A stretch of 64,000 nt of DNA, taken from an uncultured Bacillota bacterium. GTDB lineage: Bacteria; Bacillota; Clostridia; Lachnospirales; CAG-274. Location of the stretch: contig CATZZP010000001.1 in assembly GCA_958426775.1 (NCBI GenBank), positions 38,299 to 102,298 of the forward strand, read 5' to 3'. This document shows positions 45,108 through 47,065 of this stretch, piece after piece. A model generated the notes under the pieces. It worked only from the letters and a program-made list of their open reading frames with translations, did not search any database and had not been told where the DNA came from. Positions within the stretch are counted from its first letter, which is position 1. The number at the start of each line of letters is the position of its first letter. The translations under genes and the position numbers were made by a program.

Positions 45108-46097
45108 ATGGACGGAATTGAAACAAAAAAAGCGGCACTAATAAGAATATGGCAGATATTCAACAAATACAGCGACTGCAATCACCCAATAACACAGGAG
45201 GAGATAGCAGACTATCTGCATAATGAGTACGGCATAGACATAGACAGAAAAACCATAAGCAACAACATATCCGTTTTAAAGGAAATCGGTGCAGAGATAG
45301 AGTCGGGGCGTAAGGGCAGTTATCTTCAGGGCAGAATATTTGAAAATTCAGAGCTGCATATGCTTATGGACGCTGTTTTATGCAGTAAATACATTACACC
45401 CAAGCAGTCAAGTGATATTATAAGCAGGCTTTGTTTACTTACAAGCAATTACTTTAAGACAAACATAAAAAATGTTTATTCCGTAAAGGAGAGAAATAAA
45501 ACGGAAAATCAGGCGGTTTTTCTTAATATTGAGCTTATAGACGAGGCTGTTGAAAGGGGTAAAAAAATTCAGTACGACTATAATAAATACGGAGCTGATA
45601 AAAAGCTTCATAAAAGCTCAAGCCACAATGTAAGCCCTTATCAGCTTGTACTGCATAACCAAAGGTATTATCTTATGGGCTACAGCGAAAATTGGGATAA
45701 TATATTTTTCCACAGGCTTGACCGAATTACAAATATGAAAATTACAGATGAGACGGCAATAGATATTACCACCGTAAAGGGGTATGAAAACGGCATTGAC
45801 TACAAGCAGTTATCCTCAGCAAGACCTTATATGTATACCGATGAAGCTGAACTGATTAAGTTTAAGGCAAGGCTTGAAATAACAGACCAGATTATAGATT
45901 GGTTCGGCAAGGATATTTCAATAAAAAAGCTTAATGACGAAATGATTGAGGTTCAGCTTGAAGCAAGCCCTAGGGCTATGGAACATTGGGCTATGCAGTA
46001 TCTTAATTATGTGGAGATAATCTCTCCTGAGAATTTAAGAGAAAATATTGAAAATAATATTAAAAATGCTGTTGAAAAATACGGAATAAAATGTTAA
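45108..46097 (+). CDS. WYL-domain transcriptional regulator (wHTH-WYL-C-terminal extension; BrxR/CapW-like architecture)
   Basis: 329 aa. N-terminal winged HTH (ITQEEIADYLHNEYGIDIDRKTISNNISVLKEIG); central WYL-like core (YQLVLHNQRYYLMGY, analogous to the W-Y-L motif); a further ~100-aa C-terminal domain. Confidence 0.55.
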   Translation: MDGIETKKAALIRIWQIFNKYSDCNHPITQEEIADYLHNEYGIDIDRKTISNNISVLKEIGAEIESGRKGSYLQGRIFENSELHMLMDAVLCSKYITPKQSSDIISRLCLLTSNYFKTNIKNVYSVKERNKTENQAVFLNIELIDEAVERGKKIQYDYNKYGADKKLHKSSSHNVSPYQLVLHNQRYYLMGYSENWDNIFFHRLDRITNMKITDETAIDITTVKGYENGIDYKQLSSARPYMYTDEAELIKFKARLEITDQIIDWFGKDISIKKLNDEMIEVQLEASPRAMEHWAMQYLNYVEIISPENLRENIENNIKNAVEKYGIKC

Positions 46098-46174
46098 AAC
46101 TTACATATATTATTCCGAAAAGGCTTGCTATTGTTCCAAGGATATGATAATATACAATCATTGGAGGAATGCTT

Positions 46175-47065
46175 ATGTTTATGACTGTAAAGGAGGCCTC
46201 GGAAAAATGGGGCATATCCGACAGACGAATAAGAGCCTTATGTGTTCAAGGCAAAATTTTGGGAGCCGTTCAGGAAGAGGGCAGATGGAAAATACCTACA
46301 GATGCAGTTAAGCCTGCTGACGGCAGGTATAAGTCAAACAAGAGTCTTTTTGATGTGATTGACAATAAAAAGGCTCAGCTTAAAAATAAGCGTACTTTAA
46401 CAGAGGGTGAAAGAGATAGGTTTGTAGAGGAGTTTTCAGTAGAGTACACCTACAACTCAAATGCTATTGAGGGCAATTTGCTTACTCTACGCGAAACAGA
46501 TATGGTTTTAAAGGGTCTTATAGTTGAAAACAAGCCTCTTAAAGACCATTTAGAGGCGGTAGGTCATAATGATGCTTTTGAGCTTGTGCGAGAGCTTGCA
46601 AAGGAAAATGTGCCTTTAAGTGAAAGTGTAATTAAAAAAATCCACTTCCTTGTTCTTGCTGATAAAAGAAACGACAGAGGCGTATACAGACGTGTGCCTA
46701 TCAAGCTCTTAGGTGCAAAGTATATGCCTGTACAGCCATATCTTATTCAGCCTAAGATTGAGCAAATACTGGCTGAATATGAGGAAAGTAATGAGCATAT
46801 TATAACCAGGCTTGCTCGCTTTCATATCTGCTTTGAGGATATTCACCCCTTTATTGACGGCAACGGTCGTACAGGTCGTCTTATAACTAATTTAGAGCTT
46901 ATGAAGGCAGGATTTCCTCCCATCGATATTAAGTTTACGGAGCGTATGGCATACTACAAGGCCTTTGATGATTATTATGCAACCCAAAGTACCATTGCTA
47001 TGGAAAAGCTTTTTGCAGATTACATCAACCAAGGCTTGGATATGTATTTGGATATTTTGGACTGA
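46175..47065 (+). CDS. Fic/Fido-domain protein (class II, with N-terminal excisionase/MerR-type HTH), putative AMP-transferase
   Basis: Canonical Fic motif HPFIDGNGRTGR (HxFx(D/E)GNGRxxR). Upstream inhibitory-helix motif SNAIEG ((S/T)xxxE(G/N)). N-terminal HTH MTVKEASEKWGISDRRIRALCVQGKI. Start ATG 46175 is 7 nt after GGAGG. Confidence 0.75.
   Translation: MFMTVKEASEKWGISDRRIRALCVQGKILGAVQEEGRWKIPTDAVKPADGRYKSNKSLFDVIDNKKAQLKNKRTLTEGERDRFVEEFSVEYTYNSNAIEGNLLTLRETDMVLKGLIVENKPLKDHLEAVGHNDAFELVRELAKENVPLSESVIKKIHFLVLADKRNDRGVYRRVPIKLLGAKYMPVQPYLIQPKIEQILAEYEESNEHIITRLARFHICFEDIHPFIDGNGRTGRLITNLELMKAGFPPIDIKFTERMAYYKAFDDYYATQSTIAMEKLFADYINQGLDMYLDILD

Follow-up and report, generated by a model that had tools for sequence, protein, structure and literature searches.

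Two genes between housekeeping blocks

The window analysed here, a stretch of 64,000 nucleotides (nt) from an uncultured clostridial bacterium of the CAG-274 lineage (contig CATZZP010000001.1), carries on its forward strand an islet of two genes, the first coding for a WYL-domain transcription factor and the second for a Fic protein with an N-terminal helix-turn-helix (HTH). A first-pass annotation, made from the letters of the sequence, had proposed the two as a defence or toxin module. Gene 1 (45108–46097, +) is an open reading frame (ORF) of 329 amino acids with the WYL core QRYYLMGY at 45660–45683, and gene 2 (46175–47065, +), here called fic, codes for 296 amino acids; the ORF listing placed them co-directionally (+) with a gap of 71 nt. 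The longest ORF of gene 2 spans 46169–47065 (298 amino acids), but the true start is almost certainly, judging from the sequence, the ATG at 46175 and not 46169, because a GGAGG (46163–46167) lies 7 nt upstream of it, gene callers choose 46175, and the consensus of the homologues opens with MFMTV.

The left edge of the islet is marked by an intrinsic terminator hairpin 3′ of ppdK (45012–45039, +; a 10-bp stem followed by a T run, −16 kcal/mol, z −5.6) and the right edge by a terminator hairpin 3′ of fic (47071–47094, +; a 10-bp stem followed by U5, −14.7 kcal/mol, z −2.5). When the 71-nt spacer between the genes was folded in search of a further terminator, none was found (z −0.3). Housekeeping genes flank the islet on both sides, comEC-holA-ppdK on the left and, on the right, ytvI (AI-2E family) followed by a peptidyl-prolyl isomerase (PPIase) gene, a T-box, pheS and pheT. 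The ORFs, motifs and flanking terminators of the first-pass annotation were all recovered by the ORF listing, the domain searches and the hairpin folding.

Gene 1 gave a Pfam WYL match above the cut-off (2e-11), with HTH_11 and WCX slightly under theirs, and matched the PADLOC WYL models at 5e-26. An AlphaFold2 (AF2) model of moderate confidence (predicted local distance difference test, pLDDT, 69) predicts helices at the N-terminus, then a WYL sheet of five strands, and an alpha/beta domain at the C-terminus. When this model was searched against the PDB with Foldseek, the top 32 matches were all regulators composed of a winged HTH (wHTH), a WYL and a WCX domain, aligned over their full length with E-values from 5e-11 to 2.5e-4; these included PafBC (5e-11), DriD (7e-11), the Cas13d-associated WYL1 (6e-7), CapW (5e-6) and BrxR (1e-5). 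As modelled, gene 1 has the three domains of the superfamily and is a genuine wHTH-WYL-WCX regulator. This is the architecture that the first-pass annotation had assigned to it, and the lack of a WYL fold, which had been named as grounds for giving up the proposal, was not what the fold search and Pfam returned.

The BrxR family has been delimited by BLASTP similarity to BrxR(Efer) at E < 1e-5 (Picton et al. 2022), and gene 1 showed no such similarity in phmmer and profile searches of the PDB sequences. Among these sequences, which include BrxR (7qfz, 7t8k), no BrxR match was found at E ≤ 1 by phmmer or at E ≤ 0.01 by the profile search; CapW was found by neither, and the profile search returned only PafC and DriD (E about 1e-3). 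The top PDB sequence matches were to peptide deformylase (E about 0.01), an identity that was dismissed as chance since the fold search and Pfam both indicate WYL. The presumed promoter of gene 1, an extended −10 TGaTATAAT (45075–45083, +), was read by eye; the consensus scanner made no call there, for want of a good −35. Upstream of it, TGTACCAAAT (45050–45059, +; −58 from the start codon) is a possible, weakly indicated operator half-site. This half-site was found in 25 of 79 upstream regions of WYL orthologues, and the window has the half-site only. The full palindrome of the type TGTACC-N6-GGTACA occurred in only 13 of the 79, and was therefore rejected as a universal WYL operator; at best it is a feature of a subgroup.

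Gene 2 matched Pfam Fic at 8e-20, with the excisionase/MerR-type models HTH_17 and HTH_59 each 1 bit under the cut-off, and its closest solved relatives among the PDB sequences were FICD/HYPE (2e-21) and CdFic (5e-20). Class II Fic proteins are defined by the motif HxFx(D/E)GNGRxxR together with (S/T)xxxE(G/N) on the N-terminal side of the Fic core within one chain (Engel et al. 2012, as given in PMC10628234). Both motifs were found: the catalytic loop HPFIDGNGRTGR (46844–46879, +) aligns with that of FICD, and the inhibitory helix SNAIEG (46457–46474, +) aligns with TVAIEG of human FICD. The protein also retains all the residues that are invariant in its family. By these matches, gene 2 codes for an intact, FICD-like Fic of class II that carries its HTH at the N-terminus, in agreement with the first-pass annotation, which had recognised the HTH, the catalytic motif and SNAIEG. 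The AF2 model of this protein was confident only for residues 1–45, a winged HTH (overall pLDDT 56.7); with residues 75–130 and 162–192 below 50 it was too poor to serve as fold evidence for the Fic core and was not used, so that the Fic assignment rests on sequence. The best PADLOC match of Fic was PDC-S04 (model PDLC04836, E 1e-36 over residues 87–276, and seven more PDC-S04 models). The PADLOC SoFic model matched it at 9e-26, and on the equivalog model for SoFic, NCBIfam NF046030, it scored 41.6 bits against a cut-off of 550, over the catalytic region only, the HTH being N-terminal.

Genomic company of the WYL and Fic families

The first-pass annotation had proposed a two-gene module, and had named the failure of the pair to co-occur outside this genome as the outcome that would speak against it; this is essentially what was obtained with both tblastn and profile hidden Markov models (HMMs). 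For the WYL side, one genome per species was scanned, and among 466 relatives the best 80 (57–64% identical) were examined. By tblastn, a Fic gene was found within 6 kb in one of these 80 loci (L080), coding for a protein 29% identical and lying 3.3 kb upstream on the opposite strand, and a WYL relative was found in none of 80 Fic loci from IMG/VR and none of 80 metagenomic Fic loci. Profile HMMs of both families gave no WYL match in 167 Fic loci (1.45 Mb) and one Fic match in 86 WYL loci. In the database search, the exact WYL and Fic proteins occurred together only on contigs of the source species.

In the two nearest taxa sampled, whose YtvI proteins are 68% and 63% identical to that of the window, the order ytvI-PPIase-pheS-pheT-rpiR is syntenic, and both the WYL and the Fic gene are absent; the gene upstream of ytvI is mgtE in one of them and codes for a leucine-rich repeat (LRR) protein in the other. 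Because these taxa keep the ytvI block without the two genes and with another gene upstream, the pair is an accessory islet at a synteny breakpoint. An empty site at strain level was considered and rejected, as all eight contigs with an identical YtvI carry Fic upstream and the islet is lacking only in the taxa with a YtvI of 63–68% identity. Of the autonomous cassette between housekeeping genes that had been proposed, the accessory islet therefore stands, by its absence from the nearest taxa, and the two-gene unit is not supported, for want of co-occurrence.

The 80 best WYL relatives come from gut Clostridia, among them Oscillospiraceae, Acutalibacteraceae and Faecousia. The proteins encoded downstream of them on the same strand fell into 132 clusters, 112 of which were singletons. 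This cargo slot holds pairs of GmrSD_N type IV restriction proteins at 11–13 loci, and also complete GmrSD enzymes, McrBC, PD-(D/E)XK nucleases that match PDC-S26 of PADLOC, matches to PDC-S02 (4e-91), IetA-like AAA and AAA-M41 proteins, and, together with a MoxR ATPase, a DrmD-like SNF2 helicase. Defence-type cargo was present at at least 40 of the 73 informative loci. A position upstream of phage-defence genes, as is looked for in the BrxR family, was thus found at the level of the clade, and the tie to phage-defence islands made in the first-pass annotation holds at that level; the cargo of the window's own WYL gene, Fic, is a candidate defence gene only. In genomic logic the clade resembles BrxR and CapW, and the analogy holds at that level.

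Some further observations were made at these loci. A protein of ~500 amino acids with DUF2779 flanks the WYL gene and its cargo in 20 of the 80 loci (for example L016:4468–5985 and L019:4021–5502), lying immediately upstream in the same orientation or else downstream on the other strand, and is also found near two solo Fic genes (L254, L212); it may be a marker of an integration hotspot or a component of the system. Several proteins of the cargo slot matched nothing in Pfam or PADLOC (L034:7020–8069, L019:7045–7806, L042:2319–2978, L080:7074–8021 and L076:6993–8021) and, judged by their position, are candidates for unknown defence genes. An apparent swap of cassettes behind an identical WYL protein (P0138, in L010 and L012) was rejected, as blastn resolved it into a single 2.7-kb indel in the cargo (L010, 8170–10868), which truncates the downstream AAA ATPase cargo and is a natural deletion variant.

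For Fic, more than 8000 database proteins matched with an E-value of 1e-10 or lower; identity was about 70% in the best of them, and almost all were 295–298 amino acids long. The neighbouring genes formed 322 clusters in hypervariable contexts. The order terL-Fic-portal was found in metagenomic prophages, in IMG/VR contigs and, among annotated phages, in Streptococcus phage Javan422, whose Fic gene is labelled 'Huntingtin interacting protein E-like'. Solo copies lie after nadA-nadB-nadC and after the gene for lacto-N-biose phosphorylase, and serine recombinases, integrases and transposases are among the further neighbours. At the nadABC site, some of the solo copies have just upstream of them a 3′ remnant of terL of ~50 amino acids (L229, L231, L232 and L252, about 5716–5871; L217:3666–3848). 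These C-terminal remnants are 75–83% identical to phage TerL, and their retention points to a phage origin of the insertion. Fic is, in sum, an autonomous, largely phage-borne module. More distant homologues that lack the HTH (27–30% identical) are common in the Streptococcus satellite phages Javan277–759 (matches H5–H25 in the phage collection), where they are labelled hypothetical.

Direct repeats in the Fic promoter

The promoters of the HTH-Fic homologues contain two to six direct repeats of the form ATT(G/A)TTCCG(A/T)TA (core ATTRTTCCG), the last of which lies between a TTGATA −35 and a TATAAT −10. The 84 distinct upstream regions of HTH-bearing homologues included 78 with one copy or more, 63 with two or more and 35 with three or more; the copies are spaced at 20 or 23 bp, the proximal one lying at −46 to −50 from the start codon. 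The repeats were taken from loci L004–L255 and L266 (for example L266:3850–3975), and Javan422 has about six copies. In the homologues without the HTH, one of them 65% identical, repeats were detected in none of 32 distinct upstream regions (Fisher p = 7e-23).

The window's own Fic promoter (46125–46153, +) is intact and is composed of a −35 TTGCTA (46125–46130), a 17-nt spacer and a −10 TAATAT (46148–46153). Two putative operator repeats have been kept here. The distal one, ATTATTCCG (46109–46117, +), matches the repeat of the 78 homologues, and the proximal one, ATTGTTCCA (46130–46138, +), is located in the promoter spacer at −45, in the arrangement TTGCT-ATTGTTCCA-N9-TAATAT, a layout identical to the TTGATATTGTTCCGATAAAATGGTATAAT of the homologues. 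A third, more distal repeat would be expected inside the last WYL codons and is absent, which places the junction of the WYL and Fic units at about 46098–46108. The motif has three forward sites in the window, two of them at the Fic promoter. As a within-window enrichment the 12-mer with one mismatch was discarded, its 9 sites being not above chance (8.6 expected); the signal is the adjacent pair in the promoter together with the conservation across loci, not the count in the window.

Autorepression through repeats at the −35 and −10 elements has been shown experimentally for CccR, which also combines a class II Fic with an HTH (PMC9755527). The CccR-like trait, repeats in the own promoter that depend on the DNA-binding domain, was recovered here as 78 of 84 against 0 of 32. 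Because of this strict association and the precedent of CccR, Fic is most likely self-repressed through the binding of its own HTH to the repeats. DNA binding also determines whether CbFic2 carries out AMPylation or deAMPylation (PMC10628234), and for this reason an operator-bound 'off' state of the window's Fic is a reasonable speculation. Reading of the fic promoter disclosed no WYL site of the TGTACC type, and the control by WYL assumed in the first-pass annotation was not borne out, as the gene's own promoter and operator recur without WYL in more than 100 contexts, phages among them. In the literature searched, a limited set, no description was found of a Fic with an N-terminal HTH and ATTRTTCCG repeats; within that set, both this association and the Clostridial WYL clade with a cargo slot seem undescribed.

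Elsewhere in the window, a T-box leader (125 bits), expected for a Firmicute, lies at 49277–49505 (+) upstream of pheS and pheT. A c-di-GMP-I riboswitch (84 bits; 21340–21422, −) precedes, by ~550 nt, a co-directional gene for a dCache-GGDEF-EAL protein (18498–20795, −), in a region of low GC content (34–37%). The product of a gene at 8373–9206 (+), within a stretch of 32% GC, is a small protein that combines a dockerin type I domain with a BspA-type LRR, and its domains hint at a cellulosome-like surface system in the source organism.

Comparison with known systems and interpretation

BrxR and CapW are wHTH-WYL-WCX repressors of BREX, CBASS and defence islands (PMC9122601, PMC9122588). Gene 1 shares with them the three-domain fold, the position of the gene, first and on the same strand ahead of variable defence cargo, and, in some orthologues, a palindrome in its own promoter. 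It differs in having no significant sequence similarity to them, being structurally nearer to PafBC and DriD, in belonging to a Clostridial clade, whereas 97% of BrxR homologues are proteobacterial (Picton et al. 2022), and in the cargo of the window, which has its own regulation.

Fic, in turn, resembles CccR of Yersinia pseudotuberculosis, also a class II Fic with an inhibitory helix, a fused DNA-binding domain and repeats at its own −35 and −10 (PMC9755527). The HTH of CccR is C-terminal, its repeats are inverted with a 26-bp spacer, and it is an effector of a type VI secretion system, whereas the window's Fic has an N-terminal HTH of the excisionase/MerR type and direct repeats at 20–23 bp, and its family is carried by phages. 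SoFic, a single-gene defence system for which abortive infection through its Fic AMP-transferase has been proposed (Millman 2022 preprint 10.1101/2022.05.11.491447; PMC12249575), is likewise related through the PADLOC model. It is composed of DUF4172 and a C-terminal wHTH, unlike the protein described here, and the Sofic of E. coli has a small downstream antitoxin, AS1. When an AS1-like ORF was looked for, the gap between the fic hairpin and the start of ytvI held, at a minimum of 20 amino acids, only two ORFs of 20 amino acids each (47100–47162 and 47173–47235). PDC-S04 is likewise a single-gene candidate, but its models span the Fic core and not the HTH or the operator. Compared with FICD/HYPE and CdFic, with which the inhibitory helix and the catalytic loop align, the window's protein stands apart by its HTH, which they lack; FICD moreover has tetratricopeptide repeats and transmembrane parts, and shared targets (BiP for FICD) are unlikely. 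Each gene adds to a known kind, the WYL gene to the regulators of defence islands and fic to the class II Fic proteins that are PADLOC candidates, and the pair is not a family.

Our preferred reading, to which we give a probability of about 0.58, is that the 2-kb islet consists of two stacked, self-contained mobile units and not of a dedicated operon, with Fic self-regulated and auto-inhibited, and with WYL contributing at most read-through. By analogy with BrxR, CapW and DriD, binding to its own promoter is probable for the WYL regulator, as is a response to a ligand, for example single-stranded DNA. The Fic unit would be a single-gene module, made up of two to three of the direct repeats, about 20–23 bp apart and the last one inside a sigma-70 promoter, then the HTH-Fic gene and a terminator; the HTH would bind the repeats and repress transcription of its own gene, and the inhibitory Glu of SNAIEG would keep the AMP-transferase off pending a trigger. 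The spread of such a module would take place mainly through temperate phages, where it lies between terL and portal, and through solo insertions. In the source species, it would have inserted just after the stop codon of the WYL gene, and its distal repeat would have been lost. Because no terminator separates the genes, read-through from the WYL promoter may add a second input to fic, a link that would be opportunistic. The function of Fic is most likely, we infer, that of a conflict gene acting in abortive infection or superinfection exclusion through the AMPylation of a host or phage target. This role is favoured by the placement of the gene as a phage moron with its own promoter, by the PDC-S04 match and by its occurrence in hotspots of the WYL and DUF2779 type, and a defence role is, on these sequence grounds, plausible.

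Several observations weigh against this reading. The repeats overlap promoter elements, so that their conservation could partly be that of the promoter, and the link between HTH and repeats is itself one that we infer. In the window, the proximal repeat has a G>A change at the last position of the core and the distal copy is gone, by which self-repression is perhaps weakened. Both genes have been kept together in all eight sampled contigs of the source species, which is compatible with selection for the pair, and Fic occupies the exact position of WYL cargo, 71 nt downstream on the same strand, so that real co-regulation is possible. With regard to defence, PDC-S04 is a candidate family that was inactive in one native-host test (bioRxiv 10.1101/2024.12.20.629700).

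The retention of the pair in all eight contigs would suit a dedicated two-gene system, in which WYL represses fic and releases it on infection, as a WYL-gated AMPylating abortive-infection module. The co-directional arrangement with a short gap, no internal terminator and a terminator on either side argues for such a system as well, as does the habit of the WYL clade to stand ahead of defence cargo. Even so, we consider it quite improbable, given that the co-occurrence was not found elsewhere from either side (86 WYL and 167 Fic loci), that the conserved promoter and operator of fic travel without WYL, and that a WYL site of the TGTACC type was not seen in the fic promoter. It is also unlikely, but less so, that Fic benefits the phage, through host takeover, anti-defence or control of lysogeny, and that it is here a stranded remnant of a decayed prophage beside an orphan WYL gene with lost cargo, neither of them defending the cell. 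Close homologues between terL and portal, the solo copies that keep the terL fragment upstream, the presence of PDC-S04 also in lytic Fusobacterium phages (PMC12632247) and the negative native-host defence test are all consistent with a gene of this sort; however, having its own promoter and terminator within a late operon marks a classic lysogen-expressed moron rather than a gene of the lytic cycle. Moreover, fic is intact, keeps all the family-invariant residues, and persists solo in many non-phage contexts.

The lowest probability is assigned to Fic as a housekeeping, FICD-like enzyme that reversibly AMPylates and deAMPylates a chaperone or a translation factor, beside an unrelated WYL stress regulator and with a neutral adjacency. 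That its best solved relatives are FICD/HYPE and CdFic and that its flanking genes are housekeeping would fit, but an extremely mobile context, with 322 neighbour clusters and carriage by phages, and its absence from the sister taxa make such a role very improbable. A further proposal we put forward tentatively and hold to be rather unlikely: in the source species, a Clostridial BrxR-like WYL sensor would have captured a phage-derived, self-repressing HTH-Fic as cargo, giving a toxin with two transcriptional inputs, WYL-gated read-through and the operator of fic itself, and a post-translational inhibitory-Glu lock, and HTH-Fic with ATTRTTCCG would be a very widespread, undescribed, prophage-borne single-gene immunity module of gut Firmicutes.

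A false lead is removed by these results, since WYL and Fic together are no new defence family, and an orderly arrangement of two genes framed by terminators can come from the chance stacking of mobile units. The Clostridial WYL clade follows a logic of 'regulator first, swappable cargo' hitherto described almost only in Proteobacteria, and, with many of its cargo proteins unannotated, it could anchor a search for new defence genes in gut Firmicutes. The HTH-Fic family of gut bacteria and their phages, for its part, gains a testable candidate operator (ATTRTTCCG) tied to its HTH, and with it a route to the control and the trigger of class II Fic proteins.

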